This document shows positions 1 through 11,779 of a stretch of 16,604 bases of DNA, in pieces. A model generated the notes under the pieces. The model had not been told where the DNA came from. It ran no database searches and saw only the letters and a program-made list of their open reading frames with translations. This DNA comes from Synergistaceae bacterium (GTDB taxonomy: Bacteria > Synergistota > Synergistia > Synergistales > Synergistaceae): the NCBI GenBank assembly GCA_031264605.1, contig JAISDQ010000182.1, positions 1-16,604 of the forward strand, given 5' to 3'. Both the position numbers and the translations under genes were made by a program. How positions within the stretch are numbered: the stretch's first letter is position 1; each line of letters starts with the position of its first letter.

Positions 1-862
1 TCTGATCAAGAAAGCGGTCTCCAACGGGGTGCTCAGCTTCCAGATCAATTATCCCGCCGATTCGGTATACGAACTGGAAAATGAGTTTTATTCGCATTTC
101 GACCTTGATAAAGTGGTAATAGTCCCCACCTCCGTGGACGATATCGGCACAAGGATGAAGGATACCTGCGGGATGGTGGCCTCCGATCTGTGCAAGATCA
201 TACGGCCGAACGACATATTGGGGGTTTCGTGGGGCCTCACGATGGATCAGCTCGCCAGCACGATATCCACCGAGATGCTGATAAACAGAAAGTGCGATAA
301 GGTGGTCATGATGAACGGCTCCATAGCGAGCGAGGTGTATTCGACCAAGTCGAGCTACATCGTCGAACAGTTCGCGGACTTCTTCTCCGCCGAGGGATAC
401 CTGCTGCCGGTTCCAATGATCGTCGACAGCAAGGAGTTGGCCGACACGCTAAAGACTGATTCGCACATAAAATACGTCATGGAGTACGCCAATAACTCCC
501 GTCTAGCTGTATTCAGCATCGGAAGCGCGTCGTACGAGTCGGTTTTGCGCAAACGCGGAGCATATTCCAGAGAGGATTACGAGGATGTTTTGACAAGGGG
601 AGCGGTCGGCGATATTTTGGGGCGCTGTTTCGATATAGACGGCCGGTCGGTCGGGGGCGATATAGACGACCGAATCATAGGTATGGACATAGAGACGCTC
701 AAAACCAAGAATACCCGCATTGGGATAGGGGTCGGCGACAAGAAGGCCAGAGCCATAATAGGCGCGCTGCGCGGCGGAATGATCAGCCGCCTTTACACCG
801 ACGGCATGACGGCAAGGGAGGTAGTAAAGCTTCTCAACGCCGCGGACAATGTCGGAACGTAA
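1..862 (+). CDS. SorC/DeoR-family transcriptional regulator, sugar(-phosphate)-binding domain; 5' end (HTH) truncated by window edge
   Basis: The frame is open from base 2 (LIKKAVSNGVLSFQINY...), upstream of the GTG at 29 listed in the track. Motifs typical of the SorC/CggR/DeoR(B. subtilis) effector-binding domain are present: IVPTSVDD, GVSWG, VVMMNGS, VGDILGRCFDIDG and IGIGVGDKKARAIIGALRGG. Stop TAA at 860-862. Confidence 0.8.
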   Translation, partial: LIKKAVSNGVLSFQINYPADSVYELENEFYSHFDLDKVVIVPTSVDDIGTRMKDTCGMVASDLCKIIRPNDILGVSWGLTMDQLASTISTEMLINRKCDKVVMMNGSIASEVYSTKSSYIVEQFADFFSAEGYLLPVPMIVDSKELADTLKTDSHIKYVMEYANNSRLAVFSIGSASYESVLRKRGAYSREDYEDVLTRGAVGDILGRCFDIDGRSVGGDIDDRIIGMDIETLKTKNTRIGIGVGDKKARAIIGALRGGMISRLYTDGMTAREVVKLLNAADNVGT

Positions 863-895
863 TATACGAGCCGATTGCAATCAATTTATACGAGC
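863..895 (+). promoter_or_regulatory. Direct repeat TATACGAGC (x2, 24 bp apart) flanking palindrome ATTGCAAT, between the regulator stop and the first dehydrogenase start; candidate operator
   Basis: Seen directly: TATACGAGC at 863-871 and 887-895, ATTGCAAT at 875-882. A function as an operator is inference only. Confidence 0.25.
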
Positions 896-910
896 GAGGG
901 GATAAAAGCG

Positions 911-1972
911 ATGAAAGCGGTTATGATGTATAAACCAAAGGATCTGAGGATCGAGGATGTGCCGGTTCCGGCTCCGAAAGAAAATGAAGTGCTGGTAAAA
1001 GTCATGGGCTGCGGGGTATGCGGTTCCGACATACCAAGGATCAACAAATACGGCGCGTACTTCGCCCCCATCATACCGGGGCATGAATTCTCCGGAAAGA
1101 TTGTCGAAACCGGACATGCGGTCAAGGACTTCAAGGATGGCGACCGCGTTACCGTCCCGCCGCTCATTCCATGCTACAAATGCGAATGGTGCGGGAAAGG
1201 ACTGTACTCCCTCTGTTCCGGCTATGACTATTTCGGGTCGAGAAGGCACGGCGCGATGGCGGAGTACGTGGCCGTTCCCGAGGCCAACCTGCTGCGCTTG
1301 CAGGATAACGTAGGCTACATCGACGCCGCGACGACCGACCCCTGCGCCAATGCTCTGCACGGGCTCGCGCAGTCGAAGCTCCGGCCGGGCGAGGTTTTCC
1401 TCGCGTACGGCGCCGGCCCCATAGGGCTGTTTGCCTTGCAGGTTGCCCGCGTCCACGGCGCGTCAAAACTCATCACCGTGGACATCGGGGAGAAGAAGAC
1501 CGCGGTAGCGAAAAAGTATGGGGTGGATGTCGTCATTGACGCGTCCAAGGAGGATCCGGTCGAGGTCATAAAGAAGGAAACCGGAGGCAAGATGGCCGAC
1601 GTCGTCATCGATTTTACCGGAGCGCCCCCGGCCCAGAAAAAAGCCATAAACTGCGCCGGAAAGATGTCGAGGGTCGTCCTTCTCGGAATCTCCCACAGCG
1701 GACTCTCGCTGGACGAACACGAGGTCGACAATATCATGAGGGGACAGATATCAGTGATCGGCTCTTGGAATTCGTTCACCAAACCGTTCCCCGGGAACGA
1801 CTGGTTCGAGAGCCTGAAACTGTTCAGCGAGGGTAAAATATCGGCTGGGCATATGATAAGCCACAAGCTGCCACTGGATGAAGCGCCGGACATATTCAGG
1901 CAGATCGACGCCGGCGGCCTGTTTTTCAACAAGGTAATGTTCTTCCCGCACGGCGAGAACTTCGGCGAGTAG
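911..1972 (+). CDS. Zn-dependent alcohol/polyol dehydrogenase (MDR superfamily; sorbitol / galactitol-1-P / threonine dehydrogenase-like)
   Basis: Catalytic Zn ligands in GCGVCGSD and PGHEFSG. Structural Zn site CYKCEWCGKGLYSLC. Rossmann motif LAYGAGPIGL. ATG at 911 preceded by GAGGGG; the track's TTG at 875 is less likely. No N-terminal extension. Confidence 0.85.
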   Translation: MKAVMMYKPKDLRIEDVPVPAPKENEVLVKVMGCGVCGSDIPRINKYGAYFAPIIPGHEFSGKIVETGHAVKDFKDGDRVTVPPLIPCYKCEWCGKGLYSLCSGYDYFGSRRHGAMAEYVAVPEANLLRLQDNVGYIDAATTDPCANALHGLAQSKLRPGEVFLAYGAGPIGLFALQVARVHGASKLITVDIGEKKTAVAKKYGVDVVIDASKEDPVEVIKKETGGKMADVVIDFTGAPPAQKKAINCAGKMSRVVLLGISHSGLSLDEHEVDNIMRGQISVIGSWNSFTKPFPGNDWFESLKLFSEGKISAGHMISHKLPLDEAPDIFRQIDAGGLFFNKVMFFPHGENFGE

Positions 1973-2014
1973 ACGGATTTACACGCGTTTTGAGCGTATA
2001 TTGAGGAGAACATC

Positions 2015-3055
2015 ATGCTGGCTTGCGTATTCAAAAACGGAAAGTTTGAACTTGCCGAAAAACCTGTCCCGAAGGCCTCTTCCGACAGCGCGGTCGTAAA
2101 AATAAAGGCGACGTCCATATGTGGTACTGATTTCAGGACGTACGTCCACGGCAGCAAGAAGATACTCGAAGGCATAACCGTGGGGCACGAGCTTTGCGGC
2201 GAGATAGTCGAGATAGGAGAAAGCGTGGCCGGGTTTGCCAAAGGAGAAAGGGTTACGGTCGCGCCGGCGCTAGGCTGCGGGGAGTGCTACATGTGCAGAA
2301 AAGGGCACTCCAATATGTGCGACAATCTCAAGACTCTGGGGTATCATTTCGACGGTTCCTTCGCCGAGTACATGGAGATTCCGTCTCCGTTCTTCACGCG
2401 CGGACACGTCAATCATGTCGCGCCGTCGGTCGGCTCCGACCAGGCCGCGCTGGCGGAACCGGTGGCATGCGCCGTCAACGCGCAGGAGTTTTTGCGTATA
2501 GAAAAGGGCGACTACGTCGGAATTTTCGGTTCTGGATTCATCGGATGCAGTCACGCTGAACTTGCCGCGGCGCAGGGCGCTGAAAAGATCATAATGATAG
2601 AGCCCAACGCCGACAGGCTTGAGATTGCCAAACGGACGATCCCCGGAATATACGGGATCACCGGCGACGCCGACGTCGCGTCGTCCGTCAGGAAAATAAC
2701 GGATGGCAGGGGCGTTGACGTCGCCATCGTCGCTTGTTCCGTAGGCCCGGCTCAGACGGCCGCGATCGAGATCGCGGCAAAGCGGGGGAGAGTAAGCCTC
2801 TTCGGCGGACTTCCGGGCGAAGGCAGAGGATTTGTGGACAGCAATCTCATCCACTACAACGAACTCGGAATCTTCGGCGTACACGCTTCCACGCCGCAGC
2901 AAAACCGGCATGTCCTCGATTGGCTGGCCAGCGGCAAAATAGATACGGCGAAGTATATAGCGAAGAAATACCCTCTCGGAGATATCATGCAGGCTTTCGA
3001 CGACATAGCGAAAAAGGGCATCATGAAGGCCGTTATAGCCGACGAGGGCTATTAG
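2015..3055 (+). CDS. Zn-dependent alcohol/polyol dehydrogenase (MDR superfamily), second paralog
   Basis: Catalytic Zn ligands in SICGTD and VGHELCGE. Structural Zn site GCGECYMCRKGHSNMC. Rossmann motif IFGSGFIG. GAGGAG RBS before ATG 2015. Confidence 0.85.
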   Translation: MLACVFKNGKFELAEKPVPKASSDSAVVKIKATSICGTDFRTYVHGSKKILEGITVGHELCGEIVEIGESVAGFAKGERVTVAPALGCGECYMCRKGHSNMCDNLKTLGYHFDGSFAEYMEIPSPFFTRGHVNHVAPSVGSDQAALAEPVACAVNAQEFLRIEKGDYVGIFGSGFIGCSHAELAAAQGAEKIIMIEPNADRLEIAKRTIPGIYGITGDADVASSVRKITDGRGVDVAIVACSVGPAQTAAIEIAAKRGRVSLFGGLPGEGRGFVDSNLIHYNELGIFGVHASTPQQNRHVLDWLASGKIDTAKYIAKKYPLGDIMQAFDDIAKKGIMKAVIADEGY

Positions 3056-3106
3056 GCGGAAGCGACAGCCGGACACGGAGCGAATCGCCTGACGGTAGGT
3101 GTTATT

Positions 3107-3748
3107 ATGGACGAGGGACGCGTCAAACTCGAGGTCGAGATCAGAAACGCTGTTTTAATGGCGATATATAAAAAAACCGGTGTGAGATATGTGCCGGTCG
3201 CTGTATCGAACAGGCACGCGCATCTCTCGCGCGCGGATATGGAAGTTTTGTTCGGAGCGGGCCGCAAACTGACGCCCATGAAATCTCTCTCGCAGCCGGG
3301 GCAGTACGCCGCGAAAGAGACTCTCTCGCTGACCGGCCCGAAAGGCAGAATAGACGGAATTCGAGTCCTCGGCCCCGAGAGGGGAAGTTCGCAGGTGGAG
3401 ATATCCGTCACGGATTCGTTCAGGCTTGGCATAACGCCGCTCATCCGCATGTCCGGCGATACGGCCGGCAGTCCAGGGGGACGTGTGGAGACGAAGCTCG
3501 GCTCGGTGGAGTTGAGCGAGGGCGTGATCGTCGCGGCAAGGCACATGCACATATCTTCCGCTCAGGCGCAAATCATGGGCCTCTCCGACGGCCAGGCGGT
3601 ATCTCTCAAGTCCGCCGGCGGACGCGGGGTCGTGTTCGACAATGTGGCCGTCAGGAGCGGAGAGGGTTTCGACCTGGAGGTTCACCTCGACACCGACGAG
3701 GCCAACGCGGCGCTTTTGAGGGACGGGGATCTCCTCGAAGTAGTGTGA
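3107..3748 (+). CDS. pduL: PduL/EutD-type phosphate acyltransferase (phosphotransacylase) with N-terminal amphipathic helix (putative encapsulation peptide)
   Basis: Both PduL repeat signatures are present: VPVAVSNRHAHLS and VIVAARHMHIS. Also QPGQYAAKETL, GPKGRIDGIRVLGPER and DTDEANAA. The first ~25 aa (VKLEVEIRNAVLMAIYKK) form an amphipathic helix before the catalytic domain starts. Confidence 0.85.
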   Translation: MDEGRVKLEVEIRNAVLMAIYKKTGVRYVPVAVSNRHAHLSRADMEVLFGAGRKLTPMKSLSQPGQYAAKETLSLTGPKGRIDGIRVLGPERGSSQVEISVTDSFRLGITPLIRMSGDTAGSPGGRVETKLGSVELSEGVIVAARHMHISSAQAQIMGLSDGQAVSLKSAGGRGVVFDNVAVRSGEGFDLEVHLDTDEANAALLRDGDLLEVV

Positions 3749-4452
3749 ATATGTCTGTGCTGGGTGGGATTTTGGATATCTCGGATGAAAGACAGAGGGG
3801 CTTGCTGATCGGCAGGATCGCTCAGGAGGTATTGTCCCGGCTGAGCGCCCTCGATGCGAAGGATGAAAATGTCTCGGGTACGGTGGTGCTGATGACCTCT
3901 CATATTCCGTCGCCCGCGAGCGCGATGTCAAAATTGAGGGAGAACTTCGGCGGCGAATTGTCCTTCATCGACTTCGGGGTGAAGATTCCGTTTGGTCTCC
4001 CGAATGTCATAGACGCCGGGAAAGAGTCGGAGGGAAGTCTGACGGAGACGGTGGCTTCGGCGGCCGGGGTTGTGCTCCTGGCGCCGAAGATAGGATTGCT
4101 CGACAGCATAGCGAAGGGCGACGACAGGGATTTCATCCCGTATCTCGTGATACGCAGCATGCTGTGGGGAAGAGATGTGAGCGTGCTGCTTGATTTCGAG
4201 CCGCCGCGTTTCAGAAGGAACACGTTTTTTGAGAAACTTGCCGATACGTTCGCGATCCTTCAGGACATGGGGGTCAGACTGCTGACTTATAAATGCGCGC
4301 AAAAGGGCGCCGAGGGTCTGTGCCTCGTCACGGAGGCCGACGTCACAGAAGCCTGGAGAAGCCGCAGGACCGAGATACGCCGGGCGCCGGGCGCTATAAT
4401 TACCCCGGCGGCGAAAGACAAGGCCGGAGAACTCGGGATCAGGCTCAATTGA
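3745..4452 (+). CDS. Hypothetical BMC-associated protein, unknown function; N-terminal amphipathic helix (possible encapsulation peptide). May start at ATG 3751.
   Basis: ORF fills the gap between pduL and the BMC-P gene and overlaps the pduL stop (GTGA). Codon usage matches its neighbours. N-terminal LLIGRIAQEVLSRLSAL helix. No recognisable catalytic motifs (no P-loop, no HxH). C-terminal IITPAAKDKAGELGIRL is vaguely reminiscent of PduM-type BMC structural proteins; this is from memory only and unverified. Confidence 0.5.
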   Translation: MNMSVLGGILDISDERQRGLLIGRIAQEVLSRLSALDAKDENVSGTVVLMTSHIPSPASAMSKLRENFGGELSFIDFGVKIPFGLPNVIDAGKESEGSLTETVASAAGVVLLAPKIGLLDSIAKGDDRDFIPYLVIRSMLWGRDVSVLLDFEPPRFRRNTFFEKLADTFAILQDMGVRLLTYKCAQKGAEGLCLVTEADVTEAWRSRRTEIRRAPGAIITPAAKDKAGELGIRLN

Positions 4453-4494
4453 ATATCTGTTCTCATACCTCAAGACGCCGGACAGGAGAAGCAA

Positions 4495-4794
4495 ATGCAA
4501 TTATGCAGAGTTAAAGGCACAGTGGTTAGCACCAACAAGAGCGAAAAGCTGAACGGTTTGAAACTGCTGATCGTGAAACCCATTGACATCGAGACGTTCG
4601 AGGAAAAGGGCGGTATAGTCGTGGCGATCGACGCGGTGGGCGCCGGCGAGGGGGAGGTGGTGATGTGCGTCGGGGGGAGTTCTTCGCGCCAGACGGGCAT
4701 CACTGACGGAAAACCGGTGGATCAGTCCATCGTGGCCATCATTGATTCCGTGAATATGAACGGCAAGCGTATTTTTGAAAAATTCAAGGTATAA
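4495..4794 (+). CDS. BMC vertex (pentamer) protein, EutN/PduN/CcmL family (BMC-P), paralog 1
   Basis: MQLCRVKGTVVSTNKSEKLNGLKLLIV...VAIDAVGAGEGEVVMCVGGSSSR is a classic EutN/CcmL fold sequence of ~99 aa. GGAGAAG RBS. Confidence 0.85.
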   Translation: MQLCRVKGTVVSTNKSEKLNGLKLLIVKPIDIETFEEKGGIVVAIDAVGAGEGEVVMCVGGSSSRQTGITDGKPVDQSIVAIIDSVNMNGKRIFEKFKV

Positions 4795-4824
4795 GCACAA
4801 CTTTATAATAAAGAGGTCGAAGAG

Positions 4825-6261
4825 ATGGCGCTAAGCGAGGCACAGATCAGACAGCTTGCAAATGACGCGATTCTGGAGGTAAATGGCGCGAAACCATCGG
4901 CGCCTTCGGGAAAACCGGCGTATTCCGTGTTGCCGCCGGCATCTGGGCAGTGGCTGTGCGACGACGCAAACGAAGCGATCGCGAACGCGAAGCGGTCACA
5001 GATGATACTCGCCAGGATGCCGTTGGAGCAGCGGGGCAGGATAATATCGGCAATGAGAGAAGCCGCCGTCAGGCACGCGGAGACGCTTGCCGAACTCGCT
5101 CACAATGAGACCGGTTACGGGAGGGTAGATCACAAGGTTTTGAAGAACCGCCTGGCCGCTGCAAACACGCCTGGCATAGAGGATCTCCGCCCGATGGCGT
5201 ACAGCGGAGACAACGGACTCACCATAGTGGAGGGAGCGCCGTTCGGGGTGATAGGTTCCATAACTCCTTCGACCAATCCTACATCCACGGTCATAAACAA
5301 CTCGATAAGCATGATAGCGGCCGGCAACTCCGTGGTGTACAATCCGCATCCGTCCGCGAAGAATTCTTCCACTGAGGCGATGCGCGTCCTGAATGAAGCG
5401 GCAGCGGCTGCCGGAGGTCCGCCCGCCCTCATGACCACGGTAAAGGTTCCGACTCTGCAGAGCGGAGCTGCCATCATGAGCCACAGGGACGTCAAATTAC
5501 TTTCCATCACGGGCGGCGAGGCCGTCGTCAGCGTGGCGATGAAATCGGGCAAGAAAGTGATCGCCGCCGGGCCCGGAAATCCGCCGGTTATCGTGGACGA
5601 TACCGCCTTCATACCGCAGGCCGCTAAAGATATAGTCGACGGTGCGAGCTTCGACAACAACGTGCTCTGTGTGGCCGAGAAGGAGGTGTTCGCCTTCGAG
5701 GGTATCGCGGGAGAGCTGGTGAGCCAGATGGTACACTGCGGGGCCCACAAAGTTTCCGGAACGGACATCGATAAAATAGTCAATACGGTGTTGGAGAAGC
5801 GCGACGGCAAGTACGTCATAAACAGAAATTTCGTAGGGCGCAGCGCGACCCATATACTCGAACAGAGCGGAGTCCCTTACGTCGGGGAGCCGAGGCTGGT
5901 CATAGCCGAAGTGGACAAGTACCATCCGTTTGTGACGACTGAAATGCTGATGCCGGTGCTTCCGGTCGTCCGCGTCGGCAACATAGACGAAGCCATCGAG
6001 GAAGCGCTTCGCGCGGAACAGGGATATCAGCATTCGGCCATGATTCACTCCACGAACATACGGAATATGTCCGCCGCGGCCTACGCGCTGAACACGACGA
6101 TATTCGTGAAGAATGCGCCGTCATACAGCGGATTGGGCTTCGGGGGGGAGGGCTACGCCACTCTTACGATAGCGACTCCGACCGGGGAGGGCCTGACGAG
6201 CGCGAAGTCCTTTACCCGTGCCAGGCGATGCGTATTGAAGGGCGATTTCAGAATCGTCTGA
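4825..6261 (+). CDS. CoA-acylating aldehyde dehydrogenase (PduP/EutE family) with N-terminal encapsulation peptide and Pro/Ser-rich linker
   Basis: ITPSTNPTST motif. Catalytic Cys in FDNNVLCVAEKE. AAGPGNPP motif. ~478 aa. N-terminus SEAQIRQLANDAILEV (amphipathic) followed by NGAKPSAPSGKPAYSVLPPASGQ linker. Confidence 0.9.
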   Translation: MALSEAQIRQLANDAILEVNGAKPSAPSGKPAYSVLPPASGQWLCDDANEAIANAKRSQMILARMPLEQRGRIISAMREAAVRHAETLAELAHNETGYGRVDHKVLKNRLAAANTPGIEDLRPMAYSGDNGLTIVEGAPFGVIGSITPSTNPTSTVINNSISMIAAGNSVVYNPHPSAKNSSTEAMRVLNEAAAAAGGPPALMTTVKVPTLQSGAAIMSHRDVKLLSITGGEAVVSVAMKSGKKVIAAGPGNPPVIVDDTAFIPQAAKDIVDGASFDNNVLCVAEKEVFAFEGIAGELVSQMVHCGAHKVSGTDIDKIVNTVLEKRDGKYVINRNFVGRSATHILEQSGVPYVGEPRLVIAEVDKYHPFVTTEMLMPVLPVVRVGNIDEAIEEALRAEQGYQHSAMIHSTNIRNMSAAAYALNTTIFVKNAPSYSGLGFGGEGYATLTIATPTGEGLTSAKSFTRARRCVLKGDFRIV

Positions 6262-6268
6262 TTCGATC

Positions 6269-7576
6269 ATGAACGTAGCGGAGATGATTCGCAGCGCCGG
6301 AGTGGTGGGAGCCGGAGGCGCGGGATTCCCGACCCACGTCAAGGTAAACGCGGCTTCGCCCGAGTGCGTCATAGCCAACGGAGCGGAGTGCGAGCCTTTA
6401 TTGCGGGTGGATCAGCAAGTCATGGAGTTCCACGCCGGTTCTGTCATTGAAGGGTTGCGTCTGGTCATGAGCCATACTGACGCGCGTCGTGGCGTCATCG
6501 CCCTGAAGGATCACTACGAGGGCGCGATAACGGCTCTCCGGCGTGAGTTGTCCGGCTCGGACGACATAGGGCTTCACGTCATGAGAAGCTACTATCCCGC
6601 CGGGGACGAACAGCAGCTAGTGTACGATATCTGCGGGCGGGTCGTTCCGACAGGCGGGATTCCTCTTGATGTGGGGGCGGTGGTATTGAACGTCAGCACG
6701 CTTATGCACGTGGACGAAGGGAGCCGGAACATCCCGGTGACGGATAAATATGTGACGGTCGGCGGAGCGGTTCGCAGGCCTGTTACGGTCAAGGCCCCGA
6801 TAGGCGCGCCGATGGACGTTTTACTCGACGCCGCCGGAGGGACGACGGAGAAATGCGGTTACATAATCGGAGGGCCCTGTATGGGCAGAGTTGTCTCAGA
6901 CCTGAGCTTCCCGGTCGTGAAAACTACCGGAGGGATCATAGCGATACCGGAGGGACATCCGCTCCTTCAAAAAAAGAGCGATCGCATGAGCGTGCAGCTT
7001 ATCAAAGCCGTGTGCTGTCAGTGTTCCTTATGCACCCAGATGTGCCCCAGAAACGCGCTTGGGCTTCGCGTCGAACCTCATAAGGCTATGCGCAGCCTGG
7101 CCCAGGGAGTCGACCTGCTAAATGGGGCGAATGGCCTTTTCTCCTGCTGTGACTGCGGGATATGCACATACTACGCCTGCAATTTCGGCCTGAAACCGTC
7201 CAAGGTCATGGGACTGCTGAAGGCTGAAATGCAGAAGGCGGGAGTCAAGCCCAGGAAGGAAGTTTACTCGGCGGCCGACAGGGGGCTCGGCATGAAGAAA
7301 CTGCCCACCGCAAGGCTCATACACAGGTTGGGCATAGGGAAGTACGATGTGGCGGCTCCCATGGAGGAGCGTCCGATTTATACGGCCGTCGTCAGGATAC
7401 CCCTCAAGATGCACATAGGCGCCCCATCCAAGCCGGTTGCCTCGGTCGGACAGCGCGTAAACAGGGGCGATCTGATTGCCGATATACCGGAGGGGGCATT
7501 GGGCGCGAAAGTACACGCGAGCATCGACGGGACGGTTACCGAAGTGACCGGCGAATATATGGAGATAAAGGTGTAG
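6269..7576 (+). CDS. pduS: PduS-like Fe-S flavoprotein (RnfC/NADH-dehydrogenase 51 kDa-like domain plus two 4Fe-4S ferredoxin motifs)
   Basis: N-terminus MIRSAGVVGAGGAGFPTHVK matches the PduS/RnfC signature. Two cluster motifs: CCQCSLCTQMCP and CCDCGICTYYAC. The stop is only 4 nt upstream of the PduT-like gene. Confidence 0.8.
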   Translation: MNVAEMIRSAGVVGAGGAGFPTHVKVNAASPECVIANGAECEPLLRVDQQVMEFHAGSVIEGLRLVMSHTDARRGVIALKDHYEGAITALRRELSGSDDIGLHVMRSYYPAGDEQQLVYDICGRVVPTGGIPLDVGAVVLNVSTLMHVDEGSRNIPVTDKYVTVGGAVRRPVTVKAPIGAPMDVLLDAAGGTTEKCGYIIGGPCMGRVVSDLSFPVVKTTGGIIAIPEGHPLLQKKSDRMSVQLIKAVCCQCSLCTQMCPRNALGLRVEPHKAMRSLAQGVDLLNGANGLFSCCDCGICTYYACNFGLKPSKVMGLLKAEMQKAGVKPRKEVYSAADRGLGMKKLPTARLIHRLGIGKYDVAAPMEERPIYTAVVRIPLKMHIGAPSKPVASVGQRVNRGDLIADIPEGALGAKVHASIDGTVTEVTGEYMEIKV

Positions 7577-7579
7577 CTG

Positions 7580-8128
7580 ATGGGACAGGCGCTTGGAATG
7601 ATTGAACTCATAAGTGTTCCCGCTGGGATCGAGGCCGGCGACGCGATGCTGAAAGCCGCCGCCGTGGAATTGGTGACGGCGCAGGCGGCTTGCGCGGGCA
7701 AATACTTCGTCGCGGTCACCGGCGAGGTGGCCGCGGTGGAAGCGAGCGTCAAAGCCGGCAGGGAAGCCGCGTCCATGAAGCTGATCGACAGTCTCGTGAT
7801 ACCGAATATAGACGCGCAGGTACCCCTCGCCATCAACATGTGCAGCGATCCGGGGGAAATAGAGACGCTCGGGGCGATAGAGACGTTCTCTCTGTGCGCC
7901 GCGATAGTGGCGGCGGACTGCGCCGTGAAAGCCGCGCGGGTACGGCTCATAGAGATCAGGCTGGGCAGAGGGTTGGGCGGCAAGTCGTTCATAACTCTCA
8001 CCGGCGATGTGGCGGCGGTAAAAGCCGCGGTGAAAGCCGCCTCGGAAGTCGAAGAAGTCAGAGGCCTGATGGCGGAGAGCGTGGTAATACCTTCGCCGCA
8101 CCCCGATATGGTCAAGGCGGTATTTTGA
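7580..8128 (+). CDS. pduT: PduT-like tandem-domain shell protein (BMC-T) with conserved pore cysteine (Cys38) for a 4Fe-4S cluster
   Basis: 182 aa with two BMC domains. Aligns along its length to Salmonella PduT: MGQALGMIELISVPAGIEAGDAMLKAA, IDSLVIPNIDAQVPLAI and GAIETFSLCAAIVAADCAVKA...VIPSPHPDM. Cys at residue 38 (TGC 7691-7693) is at the position of the PduT cluster ligand. Confidence 0.8.
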   Translation: MGQALGMIELISVPAGIEAGDAMLKAAAVELVTAQAACAGKYFVAVTGEVAAVEASVKAGREAASMKLIDSLVIPNIDAQVPLAINMCSDPGEIETLGAIETFSLCAAIVAADCAVKAARVRLIEIRLGRGLGGKSFITLTGDVAAVKAAVKAASEVEEVRGLMAESVVIPSPHPDMVKAVF

Positions 8129-8169
8129 ATTTTACAGATACTTTGAATACAATATGAGGAGGACTGAAA

Positions 8170-8481
8170 ATGTCCAAAGAAGCACTGGGAATGGTTGAGA
8201 CAAGAGGGCTGATAGGCGCGATCGAGGCGGCGGACGCTATGGTAAAGGCCGCCAACGTTTCCCTGATCGGCAAACAGCAGATCGGAAGCGGGCTGGTCAC
8301 TGTCATGGTGAGAGGTGACGTAGGGGCCGTGAAAGCCGCTGTCGACGCCGGAGCGGCGGCCGCCAAGAGGGTAGGCGAACTCTACGGCGTGCATGTCATC
8401 CCCAGCCCCCATGGGGACGTGGAAGGCATACTGCCGACGATTAACGCCGCTCCCCCGGCGCCGGCGAAGTCGAAAGCATAA
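8170..8481 (+). CDS. BMC hexamer shell protein (BMC-H, PduA/EutM-like), copy 1, with Ala/Pro-rich C-terminal tail
   Basis: [26 protein letters not shown]...[16 protein letters not shown] is the canonical Pfam00936 domain. Tail [24 protein letters not shown]. Confidence 0.9.
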
Positions 8482-8488
8482 ACGAGCC

Positions 8489-8755
8489 GTGTACGCGGGC
8501 GAGGTCGTCGGGTGCGTAGTAGCTACGGTTAAGGAACCCAACCTGGAGGGTATACCGCTCCTGGTGGTGAGGGTAATCGAAAACGGCAAGCCGGCCAATC
8601 TGGTGGTTGCCGCGGATTCGACCCGTCAGGCCGGCAGCGGCGACCATGTGTACATGATCGGCTCCAAGGAGGCCGCTCGCATGTTCCGTAAGAAGCTGAC
8701 TCCGGTGGATGTGGCGATTGTGGGTTTTATTGACGAATACAGGGAGGAACTTTGA
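8489..8755 (+). CDS. BMC vertex protein (EutN/PduN family, BMC-P), paralog 2; probable GTG start
   Basis: VYAGEVVGCVVATVKEPNLEGIPLLVVRVIENGKP...AADSTRQAGSGDHVYMIGSKEAARMF. The same frame stays open upstream to 8393, but that stretch overlaps the BMC-H tail in another frame and is Arg-rich junk. GTG at 8489 gives the canonical MxxAxVVGxVV start. Confidence 0.7.
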   Translation: MYAGEVVGCVVATVKEPNLEGIPLLVVRVIENGKPANLVVAADSTRQAGSGDHVYMIGSKEAARMFRKKLTPVDVAIVGFIDEYREEL

Positions 8756-8794
8756 GCCCCCCTTATTTGATGATCTGAAAGGTGGAATAAAGAA

Positions 8795-9073
8795 ATGGAG
8801 AAATTGGCGCTTGGTATGGTAGAGACGAGGGGTTTGATAGGCGCGATCGAAGCGGCGGACGCCATGGTTAAGGCCGCTAACGTGACTCTGATTGGCAAGG
8901 AACAGATCGGCAGCGGTCTCGTGACCGCTATGGTGAGAGGCGACGTGGGCGCGGTAAAGGCGGCCGTCGACGCCGGAGCGGCGGCGGCGAAAAGAGTCGG
9001 CGAACTCTATGGCGTACACGTTATCCCAAGCCCGCACAACGACGTCGAGGGTATTCTGCCCGGCAAAAAATAG
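8795..9073 (+). CDS. BMC hexamer shell protein (BMC-H), copy 2 (near-identical protein to copy 1, diverged at synonymous sites)
   Basis: [97 protein letters not shown]. Confidence 0.9.
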
Positions 9074-9082
9074 GGGACGCCG

Positions 9083-9370
9083 GTGAGAATCGCCGCAGTC
9101 GTAGGAAACGTAGTTTCCACGATAAAGGACGAGTCATACCGCGGATACAAACTTATGATCATCGAATACCTGAACGAGGACGGAAAACCGTCCGGGGCGC
9201 GTCAGATAGCGTTTGACGCCGGACAGGCCGGCATAGGCGACGTAGTGCTCGTCAACGTGGACGGGGGAGCGGCGAACATGATGCTCGATAAAGACGTCAT
9301 CGCCGATCTCACAATTTGCGGCGTCCTGGACAGCTATACCTATGACGGGAAGACGAAGGTATTCTTCTGA
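9083..9370 (+). CDS. BMC vertex protein (EutN/PduN family, BMC-P), paralog 3; GTG start
   Basis: MRIAAVVGNVVSTIKDESYRGYKLMII...AFDAGQAGIGDVVLVNVDGGAANMM matches the EutN fold sequence. Confidence 0.8.
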   Translation: MRIAAVVGNVVSTIKDESYRGYKLMIIEYLNEDGKPSGARQIAFDAGQAGIGDVVLVNVDGGAANMMLDKDVIADLTICGVLDSYTYDGKTKVFF

Positions 9371-9383
9371 GGTGGTGGTTGAA

Positions 9384-10133
9384 ATGGATATTGAAAAGAT
9401 CGTGAGCGATGTGCTCAAGGAGGTTCAATCCGGGGGAACTGTTCACGGAAAACCCTCGCCGGGTTCGGTTCAGGCGTGGGAAGTTCCGTCGAAGCTGGAG
9501 CACTCGCTGCTGAACCCGGATGTCGGCCTCGGCAAGATATTGGCGGAGTGCGCCGTCGCGCGGCGGTATTGCGTAGCGGCGGTCTGTGTCGCGCCCTATT
9601 ATGTGTCCGCCGCCGCCGACGTCCTGAGAGGAAGCGGCGTAAAGGTCTGCGCCGCGATAGGTTTCCCGCACGGTTGCATGTCGGCGGCGTCAAAACTGGC
9701 CGAAGCGCGCGAGTGCGTCAAAAACGGCGCGGACGAAATCGACGTCGCGATGAACATTCTTGCGGTAAAATCGGGCAGGATCGCCGACGCAAGGGACGAT
9801 TTCGAACAGATAGCGGCCGCCTCGCGCGGAAAGACTACGCTCAAGGCGGTTTTCGAGCACAGCGTGTACTCCGACGAGGAGAAGCGCGCCGTGCTGGAAA
9901 TCGTGAAGACCTGCGGAGCCGAGTTCGTGAAGATACAAAACGTCCTGAGCGGCAAGGGCGCCGAAACCGAGGACATAAAATATGTGAGGAATATCCTGGG
10001 CCGTAACGTGAAAGTCAAGATCGACGGCGGCGTAAAGACGCTGGCGAAGGCGATGGAACTGTTGTCCGCGGGAGCGGATCGCATAGGACTCACAGCGACC
10101 GCGGCGATCGCGAAAGAGGCGGAGTGTAAATAA
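9384..10133 (+). CDS. Divergent DeoC-family class I aldolase (deoxyribose-phosphate aldolase-like) with N-terminal extension (putative encapsulation peptide)
   Basis: TIM-barrel DeoC architecture: AAVCVAPYYV, AAIGFPHG, EFVKIQNV (Schiff-base Lys retained) and KVKIDGGVKT (second Lys retained). The consensus TSTGF and phosphate-loop GTSSG are replaced by IQNVL and GLTAT. N-terminus MDIEKIVSDVLKEVQS plus a Gly/Pro/Ser linker. ATG 9384 with GAGGTGG RBS; the track's start at 9342 overlaps the upstream gene. Confidence 0.7.
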   Translation: MDIEKIVSDVLKEVQSGGTVHGKPSPGSVQAWEVPSKLEHSLLNPDVGLGKILAECAVARRYCVAAVCVAPYYVSAAADVLRGSGVKVCAAIGFPHGCMSAASKLAEARECVKNGADEIDVAMNILAVKSGRIADARDDFEQIAAASRGKTTLKAVFEHSVYSDEEKRAVLEIVKTCGAEFVKIQNVLSGKGAETEDIKYVRNILGRNVKVKIDGGVKTLAKAMELLSAGADRIGLTATAAIAKEAECK

Positions 10134-10164
10134 AAGGCCTTAATACGATTATTGGAGGAATAAG

Positions 10165-11001
10165 ATGAGCGCGATAGATATCAATGAAATTATCAGGCAG
10201 GTGACTGCCGAGATATGCGCCAACTACGGCGCGGCTTCTTCCGCGCCGGCTGATGAGTACAGTCCGGCGTCGCTGGCGAAGTACATCGACCATACGCTGC
10301 TTAAGCCCGACGCCAGCCTGAACGATATACGCAAGGTCTGTGACGAAGCAAAGAAGCATAACTTCGCTAGCGTGTGCGTGAACACCGGCTACATAAAATT
10401 CGTAGCCGACGCTCTGGAGGGCAGCGGAGTGGCGCCATGCTGCGTCGTCGGTTTCCCGCTGGGAGCCATGATGCCCGAGGCCAAAGCGGCCGAGGCGCTG
10501 TGCGCCGTCAACAGCGGCGCTAAAGAGGTCGACATGGTCATAAACGTCGGAGCGGTGAAATCATCCGACTGGAAATTGGTCCACAGCGACATAGAGGGCG
10601 TCGTGACGGCGGCTCGCGGAAGAGCCATAGTGAAGGTGATAATAGAGACATGCCTCCTCACCGACGAGGAAAAGGTGAAGGCATGCGCGATCAGCAAACT
10701 CGCGGGGGCTCATTTCGTGAAAACGTCCACCGGATTTTCGACCGGCGGAGCGACGGTGGAAGACGTGCGTCTGATGCGCCGGACAATAGGTCCCGATATG
10801 GGACTCAAGGCATCCGGAGGAGTGAGGACGTACGAGGACGCGGTCAACATGCTGAAGGCCGGAGCCACCAGGCTGGGAACCAGTTCAGGAACGAAGATCG
10901 TATCGGGCGACGGCGCGGCGGAGCACAAATGCGTGAACTGCGGAGCGTGCAAAGTCGTGTGCCCGAGCGGCAGGGCCACGGTCATAAAAGGCCTGTACTG
11001 A
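10165..11001 (+). CDS. deoC: Deoxyribose-phosphate aldolase (DeoC) with N-terminal encapsulation-peptide-like extension and C-terminal CxxCxxCxxxCP 4Fe-4S ferredoxin-type motif
   Basis: Canonical DERA motifs: YIDHTLLKPDA, VCVNTGY, VVGFPLGA, HFVKTSTGFSTGGAT, GLKASGGVRT and RLGTSSG. N-terminus MSAIDINEIIRQVTAEI plus an Ala/Ser/Pro linker. C-terminal tail KCVNCGACKVVCP (nt 10930-10965). Confidence 0.85.
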   Translation: MSAIDINEIIRQVTAEICANYGAASSAPADEYSPASLAKYIDHTLLKPDASLNDIRKVCDEAKKHNFASVCVNTGYIKFVADALEGSGVAPCCVVGFPLGAMMPEAKAAEALCAVNSGAKEVDMVINVGAVKSSDWKLVHSDIEGVVTAARGRAIVKVIIETCLLTDEEKVKACAISKLAGAHFVKTSTGFSTGGATVEDVRLMRRTIGPDMGLKASGGVRTYEDAVNMLKAGATRLGTSSGTKIVSGDGAAEHKCVNCGACKVVCPSGRATVIKGLY

Positions 11002-11023
11002 CCTGGGTATCTTTTAAAAATAT

Positions 11024-11779
11024 ATGAGAAAACCGATTATCGCCGGTAACTGGAAGATGAACATGACGCCGTCACAGACGGTGAAGCTGATCGAGGAGAT
11101 CAAGCCTCTCGTCGCGGAGGCGAGATGTGAGATCGTCGTCTGTCCGACCCATACGTGCCTCTTTGCGGCTAAAGAGGCCCTTAAAGGGACGGACAGAATA
11201 TCCCTCGGCGCTCAGGACATGTTTTACGAGGAGAGGGGCGCTTTCACCGGCGAGGTCTCCTGCGAATCGCTGCTCGAACTCGGCGTCAGATACGTGATCA
11301 TCGGACATTCGGAGCGCCGCCAATACTTCGCCGAGTCCGACGAGACGGTCAGCAAAAAAGTCACGAAGGCCCTGGAAAAACGCCTGATTCCGATTGTCTG
11401 CGTGGGCGAGTCGCTCACGCAGAAACAGCGGGGAGTTACGAACGAAACCGTGGGGTTGCAGACGCGTCTCGCGCTTTTCGGCGTCGGCGCCGGAAACGCG
11501 GAGGACGTCGTGATAGCGTACGAACCGATCTGGGCAATCGGAACAGGCATGACGGCCACCAGCGCGGAGGCGAACGGCACGATACGCCGTATAAGAGGCG
11601 TCCTCGCCGAGATGTACAATCCGGAAACCTCGCGGAAAGTCCGCATTCTTTACGGGGGCAGCATGAACGCCGGAAACGCAGGGGAATTGCTTTCAACGAG
11701 CGACATAGACGGAGGACTGATAGGCGGCGCGAGCCTGAAGAGCGGCGATTTCGCGCAAATCGTGGGCAACTTGAGCTGA
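11024..11779 (+). CDS. tpiA: Triosephosphate isomerase
   Basis: IIAGNWKMN, catalytic His in IIGHSERR, AYEPIWAIGTG (catalytic Glu) and YGGSMN. No N-terminal extension. Confidence 0.9.
   Translation: MRKPIIAGNWKMNMTPSQTVKLIEEIKPLVAEARCEIVVCPTHTCLFAAKEALKGTDRISLGAQDMFYEERGAFTGEVSCESLLELGVRYVIIGHSERRQYFAESDETVSKKVTKALEKRLIPIVCVGESLTQKQRGVTNETVGLQTRLALFGVGAGNAEDVVIAYEPIWAIGTGMTATSAEANGTIRRIRGVLAEMYNPETSRKVRILYGGSMNAGNAGELLSTSDIDGGLIGGASLKSGDFAQIVGNLS

Follow-up and report, generated by a model that had tools for sequence, protein, structure and literature searches.

The analysed window, positions 1 to 16,604 of contig JAISDQ010000182.1 from a Synergistaceae metagenome-assembled genome (assembly GCA_031264605.1), carries a sugar-phosphate-utilisation (SPU) bacterial microcompartment (BMC) locus resembling type SPU4, and five of the proteins encoded there begin with short segments that are probably encapsulation peptides (EPs, also termed signal sequences). 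The five are a PduL-type phosphotransacylase (PTAC), a protein of 235 aa designated P5, a CoA-acylating aldehyde dehydrogenase (AldDH), and two aldolases of the deoxyribose-phosphate aldolase (DERA) family, DeoC-1 and DeoC-2. This interpretation, proposed in an earlier note on the same DNA, is supported by the terminal position of the segments in proteins encoded among shell genes, by the combination of a conserved helix with a variable linker, by the absence of the segments from most non-BMC structures, and by a pattern of residues like that of Salmonella signals. The observation holds for four of the proteins and is plausible for PduL. The genes and their segments are as follows.

3107..3748, + strand: PduL-type phosphotransacylase, 213 aa (Pfam PF06130, E 7e-69, aa 30-204; NCBIfam phosphate propanoyltransferase)
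3122..3175, + strand: PduL candidate helix VKLEVEIRNAVLMAIYKK, aa 6-23, abutting the PTAC domain with no real linker
3745..4452, + strand: P5, 235 aa, probable PduM/eut_hyp family, predicted flavoprotein-like fold (start uncertain: GTG 3745, ATG 3751 or TTG 3772)
3787..3852, + strand: P5 helix ERQRGLLIGRIAQEVLSRLSAL, aa 15-36 (AlphaFold2)
4825..6261, + strand: CoA-acylating AldDH, 478 aa (Pfam PF00171 from aa 46; NCBIfam PRK15398, 623 bits)
4831..4881, + strand: AldDH putative helix LSEAQIRQLANDAILEV, aa 3-19 (orthologue conservation and profile periodicity)
4882..4953, + strand: AldDH linker NGAKPSAPSGKPAYSVLPPASGQW, aa 20-43 (~70% Gly/Pro/Ser/Ala)
9384..10133, + strand: DeoC-1, divergent DERA-family aldolase, 249 aa (TIGR00126, 165 bits against a cutoff of 117)
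9390..9431, + strand: DeoC-1 amphipathic helix IEKIVSDVLKEVQS, aa 3-16 (AlphaFold2)
9432..9473, + strand: DeoC-1 linker GGTVHGKPSPGSVQ, aa 17-30 (predicted local distance difference test score, pLDDT, <50 at 16-26; high entropy, variable length)
10165..11001, + strand: DeoC-2, canonical DERA with N- and C-terminal additions, 278 aa (TIGR00126, 279 bits against a cutoff of 117)
10174..10230, + strand: DeoC-2 putative helix IDINEIIRQVTAEICANYG, aa 4-22 (orthologue conservation and periodicity)
10231..10269, + strand: DeoC-2 linker AASSAPADEYSPA, aa 23-35 (high entropy; 70-90% Gly/Pro/Ser/Ala/Thr/Asn/Gln in orthologues)

All five segments are present as the earlier note had described, each 5′ of the conserved domain of its gene, and all fall within the first 36 residues of proteins whose genes interleave with six shell genes. 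The positions given there were exact for DeoC-1 (9384-9431) and DeoC-2 (10165-10215) and within one codon for AldDH (4831-4956), but the PduL peptide VKLEVEIRNAVLMAIYKK is located at 3122-3175 rather than 3116-3172, and in P5 the quoted peptide LLIGRIAQEVLSRLSAL occupies 3802-3852, the start of 3787 being that of the AlphaFold2 helix (aa 15). Domain boundaries were placed by comparison with Pfam models and solved structures. In PduL, an EP-deleted crystal construct (PDB 5cuo) aligns from aa 29 and the Pfam PTAC domain from aa 30. The nearest PDB entries to AldDH are BMC AldDHs (4c3s and 5jfl), and AdhE and EutE structures align with it from aa 48-50, at their own residues 9-15. For DeoC-1 and DeoC-2, alignments with approximately 15 solved DERAs, whose source organisms lack an SPU locus, begin at aa 33-40 of the query and at residues 2-16 of the solved protein, in most cases at aa 35-38 and residues 2-8; in DeoC-1 the PDB DERAs align from aa 35, and in DeoC-2 they align over aa 36-250, with scores of up to 263 bits. 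P5 had no non-BMC homologues available for comparison. The triosephosphate isomerase (TPI, TpiA), PduS, and both Zn-dependent alcohol dehydrogenases (ADHs) were rightly said to lack such extensions, since their domains start directly (Pfam matches begin at aa 4 in TPI and at aa 7 in PduS); the GNWKM anchor of TPI is at position 7 in all 50 orthologues where the anchor was found.

Relatives were gathered by a scan for the DeoC-1 family, with one genome per species, which gave 80 loci, and by exact-protein look-ups, which gave four more, for a total of ~84 shell-linked loci, from which orthologue alignments of 35-73 distinct sequences per family were made. AlphaFold2 models were computed for DeoC-1, from an alignment of 26 relatives, and for P5, from 35 sequences, and amphipathicity was assessed both as the hydrophobic moment of the window sequences relative to shuffles and as the Fourier periodicity of mean column hydrophobicity relative to column shuffles. 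In these two of the five proteins, the predicted helices were recovered by modelling. In the DeoC-1 model (mean pLDDT 90), residues 3-16 form a helix (pLDDT ~75), residues 16-26 are disordered (<50), and the barrel starts at about residue 31. In the P5 model (mean pLDDT 82), a helix spans 15-36 and confidence is low at 37-40, after which come an alpha/beta domain and, at the C-terminus, a small further domain.

The amphipathic character claimed for all five segments proved strong in DeoC-1, moderate in DeoC-2 and P5, and apparent at the level of the family profile in AldDH, but it was not demonstrable in PduL. The single-sequence moment of DeoC-1 was 0.51-0.63, values reached by 0.3-2% of shuffles (0.63, 0.3%, for the AlphaFold2 helix), and those of DeoC-2 and P5 were reached by 11-18%. 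The validated Salmonella PduP and PduL signals, read from the real pdu operon, were also only moderate in the same test; the single-sequence moment is thus a weak discriminator, and orthologue-profile periodicity was therefore added. Profile peaks lay at 90-95 degrees in DeoC-1, DeoC-2, AldDH, and P5, with a power reached by 0.4-3% of column shuffles (2% for DeoC-2, 2% for AldDH with its peak at 90 degrees, and 0.4% for P5, likewise at 90 degrees). For DeoC-2 and AldDH, it is this 3.6-residue periodicity across orthologues that supports a helix. As controls, TPI and PduS had no significant N-terminal periodicity in their orthologue profiles.

Hydrophobic positions are conserved across the orthologues. 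In DeoC-1, hydrophobic residues 3/6/10/14 are conserved in 73 sequences (consensus MDIE.I..EV..EV); in DeoC-2, the start MDINEIIRQVTEEIC.KYG is nearly invariant in 44 orthologues, with hydrophobic residues at 6/9/10/13/17/21; in AldDH, the consensus is MALTKEQIRQIAEQT, with hydrophobic residues kept at 3/8/11/19; and in P5, hydrophobic residues 18/21/22/25/26/29/30/33 are conserved in 35 sequences (consensus LLHKLIELIVAEVVRRVA). In the PduL orthologues, window positions 8/12/16-17/20-21 remain hydrophobic, and the consensus, MDK.AVQR.VQLAV.E.VFRKTG, directly abuts the domain, a layout that mirrors Salmonella PduL (MDKELLQSTVSKVLDEMRQRPIPLGVSNRH: helix, then PIPLGVSNRH). A hydrophobic pattern of i, i+3/4, i+7/8, i+11 is common to the segments and to the validated Salmonella PduD, PduP, and PduM signals. 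Helices that are short, charged on one face, and carried by cytosolic enzymes are not those of a signal peptide or membrane anchor, and that identity was rejected.

The Gly/Pro/Ser/Ala-rich linker that the segments were said usually to have is found in DeoC-1, DeoC-2, and AldDH, where it is poorly conserved; PduL and P5 have no such linker or only a very short one. Orthologues of the first three proteins have a low-entropy helix, then a high-entropy linker of variable length, then the conserved domain, a pattern absent in TPI and PduS. The AldDH linker has the highest entropy of its region and is gapped in 60-90% of orthologues, and in DeoC-2 the linker is followed by a conserved ADMAKYIDHT. 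Ahead of the domain anchor there are 35-71 residues in DeoC-1, 37-55 in DeoC-2, and 25-57 in AldDH. In PduL and P5, helix and domain are connected by 4-9 residues, as they are in Salmonella PduL and PduM.

For P5, the earlier note had reported no identified catalytic domain. The window protein by itself matches nothing in Pfam or NCBIfam and fell below threshold in every family library scanned, but a scan of the whole family returned PduM and eut_hyp models. Among the 35 P5 relatives, 24 matched TIGR04493 (PduM; best E 1.2e-7), 22 matched TIGR02536 (eut_hyp; best E 3.6e-7), 14 matched NF011957 (PduM), and five had weak matches to PF15953. The P5 profile aligned with one of PduM from Salmonella, Klebsiella, and E. 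coli in hhalign (E 1e-4, probability 58%, 135 columns). When a P5 hidden Markov model (HMM) was run against ~9000 open reading frames (ORFs), the next-best match after its own family and the PduL ORFs bearing a P5 module was Salmonella PduM, and the reverse search agreed. The match spans the helix at the N-terminus (lierivqEVlrrva against TLQRIVEEIVSRLQ) as well as the C-terminal module. The gene lies between pduL and a BMC-P (pduN-type) gene, with a 4-nt overlap between its start and the stop of pduL, as is the case for Salmonella pduM. Judged from its sequence, P5 is probably a PduM/eut_hyp-family protein with a predicted flavoprotein-like fold. The identification agrees with the description of the SPU4 eut_hyp protein as flavoprotein-related, with an N-terminal EP of 30-40 aa (Sutter 2021, Supplementary Data 2); a literature search linking PduM, flavoprotein, and microcompartment found nothing. 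In Salmonella, normal encapsulation requires residues 1-23 of PduM, and these residues suffice for targeting (PMC12108088); by analogy, no other indirect evidence supports the P5 helix as an EP as strongly as this validated signal.

The C-terminal ~45 aa of P5 and PduM (LVTExDV...G.ITPAARD.A.E.GI.L) behave as a mobile unit. In Treponema loci without a P5 gene, PduL carries a P5-type module as a C-terminal fusion (E 1e-6 to 1e-8; L068 4264-5115, L070 3986-4837, and L065 4145-5110), and in protein P0358 such a module precedes an EP-like helix and a DERA. The Treponema loci were searched for a short PduM-like gene that would bridge P5 and PduM, and none was found.

The targeting role of the helices and their binding partner are inferred from the Pdu and Eut systems. 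On that analogy, each helix of 14-22 residues would present one hydrophobic face (i, i+3/4, i+7/8, i+11), which a flexible Gly/Pro/Ser/Ala linker would keep off the catalytic domain in DeoC-1, DeoC-2, and AldDH, and which would be joined to the body almost directly in PduL and P5. During assembly, the hydrophobic face would bind either to other cargo, in the coalescence of a core, or to the hydrophobic groove where neighbouring shell hexamers tessellate. Binding of EPs in such a groove has been modelled (PMC11157265), and in a Salmonella pduB deletion strain the signal sequences, ssPduM among them, are located at the cargo core instead of the shell (PMC12108088). The two aldolases, the AldDH that consumes acetaldehyde, the PduL that recycles CoA, and the PduM-like P5, which would be structural or flavoprotein-like, are probably lumenal, an arrangement that would support the standard model, in which acetaldehyde from aldol cleavage is trapped and oxidised inside the shell before it can escape. 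TPI, PduS, and the Zn-dependent ADHs, which are untagged, would lie outside the shell or be recruited otherwise.

Several observations weigh against an EP identity. The single-sequence moment of AldDH is at background, and so is that of PduL, in which hydrophobic residues occur all around the helix, making it hydrophobic and not amphipathic; the PduL profile periodicity is also not significant (peak at 85 degrees, reached by 37% of shuffles), and Salmonella ssPduL has been described as a weak signal (PMC12108088). The segments were, moreover, expected to be missing from homologues outside BMC loci, which is so for AldDH relative to AdhE-type structures, for most solved DERAs, and for PduL, whose EP occurs only in BMC-associated homologues (PMC4784909); for the aldolases the expectation stands only in part, because T. 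maritima and Chloroflexi DERAs have helical extensions of similar length. The T. maritima DERA (PDB 3r12) has a 28-aa N-terminal helical extension, MIEYRIEEAVAKYREFYEFKPVRESAG, and in a Chloroflexi DERA (P0372, Ornatilinea-like) the extension MAIHIKEMVEQAKAYLVQLPELPEMKPV aligns with the DeoC-2 helix, in a locus (L088) with housekeeping neighbours (coaE, der, signal peptidase) and no shell gene within 8 kb. T. maritima is not known to have a BMC or shell genes. An N-terminal helix on a DERA alone is thus not diagnostic of encapsulation, and it may be an old feature of the DERA clade that was later recruited for targeting.

These two proteins also favour an explanation in which the helices, at least those on the aldolases, are an intrinsic structural or oligomerisation element of a DERA subfamily, serving dimer or tetramer contacts or stability instead of targeting, and EPs are known to change the oligomeric state of PduL (PMC4784909). 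Such a role is nevertheless unlikely. In DeoC-1 and DeoC-2 the helix is set off from the barrel by a linker that is hypervariable, variable in length, and, in the DeoC-1 model, of low confidence, and a hypervariable, disordered linker favours a tethered peptide over a packed structural helix; the same type of helix is found on four unrelated folds of one operon. The 150 nearest DeoC-2 representatives, from clusters at 50% identity, include 24 without an extension, 29 with 25-60 residues, 28 with 61-110, and 63 with a further N-terminal domain, and that only 24 lack an extension is consistent with one large BMC-type clade. Since Chloroflexi carry SPU6 BMCs (Sutter 2021, Supplementary Data 2), P0372 may itself be a satellite or ex-BMC gene. 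The T. maritima segment (PDB 3r12/3r13), although it is ~28 aa long, helical, and placed before the TIM barrel as in DeoC-2, differs in its aromatic-rich composition, short linker, and unremarkable hydrophobic moment. A very unlikely alternative is that the helices drive condensation of cargo with cargo, in a core-first or scaffolding role, the link to the shell being made by the PduM-like P5 or by other proteins. The localisation of Salmonella signals to the cargo core without pduB (PMC12108088) and the aggregation of PduL caused by EPs (PMC4784909) would fit such a role, and a single hydrophobic pattern common to five helices would permit mutual association; against it, EPs have been placed in the inter-hexamer groove (PMC11157265) and archaeal SPU cargo binds shell particles in an EP-dependent manner (bioRxiv 2025.11.08.687404). 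Condensation would in any case be a variant of encapsulation targeting and not another identity for the segments.

The extensions might finally be artefacts of start-codon choice, with the proteins beginning downstream. The start of P5 is ambiguous among GTG 3745, ATG 3751, and TTG 3772, and automated N-terminal annotation of SPU enzymes varies (Dwyer 2024), but this explanation was rejected as extremely improbable. The helices are conserved as protein across phyla, at overall identities of 44% to 86%, and a Shine-Dalgarno-like motif stands before each upstream ATG, in DeoC-1 (GGTGGTGG, ATG 9384), DeoC-2 (GGAGG), AldDH (AGAGG), and PduL. Deposited annotation includes the extension, in P0001 (249 aa, 100% identical to DeoC-1) and in P0121 (233 aa), and the P5 helix is retained even from the most downstream of its starts.

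Many close DERA relatives are fusions, namely P0314 and ~60 other representatives in which over 110 residues precede the DERA domain. By eye, P0314 begins with a part resembling a purine nucleoside phosphorylase, which is followed by a helix and then by DERA.

EP tags on these protein classes were known for this type of BMC from earlier publications. In SPU4, N-terminal EPs were reported on AldDh, most pfam01791 proteins, PTACs, and the flavoprotein-related eut_hyp protein (Sutter 2021, Supplementary Data 2), and all SPU DERAs were described as having an N-terminal amphipathic helix, with EPs also on SPU AldDh and PTAC (Dwyer 2024). The assignment in the window is supported as correct but ordinary, and no concept is changed by it. 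The locus shares with SPU4 (Sutter 2021; Dwyer 2024) a triplet of BMC-P genes, two similar BMC-H genes, PduS with BMC-T(s), AldDH, PTAC, TPI, pfam01791, and a flavoprotein-related hypothetical protein. It differs in several respects: no ribose-5-phosphate isomerase (RPI) of the RpiB type (pfam02502) was found in the window or in the 84 related loci with an E. coli RpiB sequence as query, although RPI usually accompanies DERA in SPU loci; two pfam01791 paralogues are present, both tagged; TPI is never tagged, whereas about half of those in published SPU4 loci are; Zn-dependent ADHs replace the iron-type ADH (pfam00465); and the hosts, Synergistaceae here with relatives in Treponema, belong to phyla that were not among the 2021 SPU4 hosts. 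As published SPU4 loci lack RPI in 11 of 29 cases (Dwyer 2024), its absence does not exclude the SPU4 type. In SPU6, by contrast, the DERA extension consists of a ~70-aa helix plus two strands, compared with ~35 aa here.

The Salmonella enterica Pdu signals (PduD 1-18, PduP 1-18, PduL 1-20, and PduM 1-23) are likewise N-terminal helices with alternating hydrophobic and polar pairs, and the pdu operon shares the order pduL, pduM-like, pduN-like, AldDH, and pduS, the 4-nt pduL/pduM overlap, and a PduL helix that abuts its domain without a long linker. The signature enzyme there is a B12 diol dehydratase rather than an aldolase, P5 is ~70 aa longer than PduM with a fuller flavodoxin-like domain, and, except for P5 and PduM, the signals are not alignable beyond the pattern. 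The SPU-type BMC of Hodarchaeales also has predicted EPs on DERA, AldDH, PTAC, and a DUF protein, together with a flavoprotein domain associated with DERA, and its cargo was recruited to shells in an EP-dependent manner in pull-downs (bioRxiv 2025.11.08.687404); flavoprotein-DERA and PTAC-citrate synthase are fusions there, whereas the genes are separate here. With the present locus and its relatives, the host range of this type of locus gains Synergistaceae and Treponema. The tags are short and highly conserved, MDINEIIRQVTEEI and MDIEKIVSDVLKEV above all, and are candidates for cargo loading. Three other features are likelier to matter: the Fe-S-like (iron-sulfur-like) tail of DeoC-2, a DeoC-1 family exclusive to BMC loci, and a mobile C-terminal module of PduM type, 45 aa long.

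DeoC-1 typifies a DERA-like family of its own, ~250 aa in length and seen only beside shell genes (~84 loci), which is marked by FVKIQNVLSGKGA, KIDGGVKT, and IGLTAT and has altered phosphate-site motifs. Its invariant D120, K183, and K212 correspond to the Asp/Lys/Lys catalytic triad, which is also aligned in DeoC-2, but IQNV and GLTAT replace TSTG and GTSSG, and the C-terminal Tyr tail is lacking. The near identity between the start of DeoC-1, MDIEKIV, and that of DeoC-2 orthologues, MDINEII, suggests that the two arose by duplication after the tag had been acquired. Beyond its DERA barrel, DeoC-2 has a C-terminal addition:

10915-10998, + strand: DeoC-2 C-terminal tail AAEHKCVNCGACKVVCPSGRATVIKGLY, aa 251-278

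This tail has a ferredoxin-type CxxCGxCxxxCP motif and ends in Tyr, and the motif is present in 54 of the 61 DeoC-2 ORFs of related BMC loci; weak matches to Fer4 and ferredoxin HMMs were obtained. The conserved C-terminal Tyr is catalytic in E. coli DERA. In 11 other DERA representatives, CxxC...C...C motifs occur in the N-terminal extension instead. No mention of the tail motif was found in Dwyer 2024. It is conceivable, though doubtful, that this RPI-less family uses two specialised EP-tagged DERAs, in which DeoC-2 would be the catalytic enzyme, with an Fe-S cluster in its flexible tail coupling or gating the aldolase to a PduS/BMC-T redox relay, and DeoC-1 would take the packaging-partner role of the catalytically inactive RPI of other SPU types.

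The locus contains three BMC-P, two BMC-H, and one BMC-T genes, together with AldDH, PTAC, PduS, TPI, and the two DERA genes, and every gene of positions 1-11779 belongs to a single cluster on the + strand. Besides the genes given above, it comprises the following.

1-862, + strand: SorC-type regulator, its ORF open as far as base 1 and its DNA-binding N-terminal part missing
Between the SorC-type regulator and PduL, + strand: two Zn-dependent alcohol dehydrogenases, without N-terminal extension
4495..4794, + strand: BMC-P 1, EutN/PduN-type pentamer (PF03319, E 3e-27)
6269..7576, + strand: PduS homologue (Pfam Complex1_51K from aa 7)
7580..8128, + strand: BMC-T, tandem BMC domains, 3′ of PduS (PF00936 in two stretches, E 1e-46)
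8170..8481, + strand: BMC-H 1 (PF00936, E 4e-29)
8489..8755, + strand: BMC-P 2 (PF03319, E 1e-16; GTG start predicted from sequence)
8795..9073, + strand: BMC-H 2 (PF00936, E 3e-29)
9083..9370, + strand: BMC-P 3 (PF03319, E 9e-22)
11024..11779, + strand: triosephosphate isomerase (Pfam TIM from aa 4)

Because the SorC-type ORF is open at base 1, the contig begins inside the regulator gene, and the BMC locus may extend upstream. The hosts of the ~84 related loci include Synergistaceae, Christensenellaceae, Oscillospiraceae/Faecousia, Pseudoflavonifractor, Treponema, and Limiplasma. BMC-H and/or BMC-P genes adjoin the DeoC-1 relatives in nearly all of these loci, the exceptions ending at a contig edge, and DeoC-2, PduL, P5, AldDH, PduS, and BMC-T are the usual companions of the shell genes. 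In Christensenellaceae and related loci, an FGGY kinase and a class II aldolase are encoded near the BMC locus. In the window, the first domain of BMC-T (7580-8128) holds AACAGKY, which by eye looks like the pore motif with Cys that is found in Fe-S shell proteins of the PduT type.

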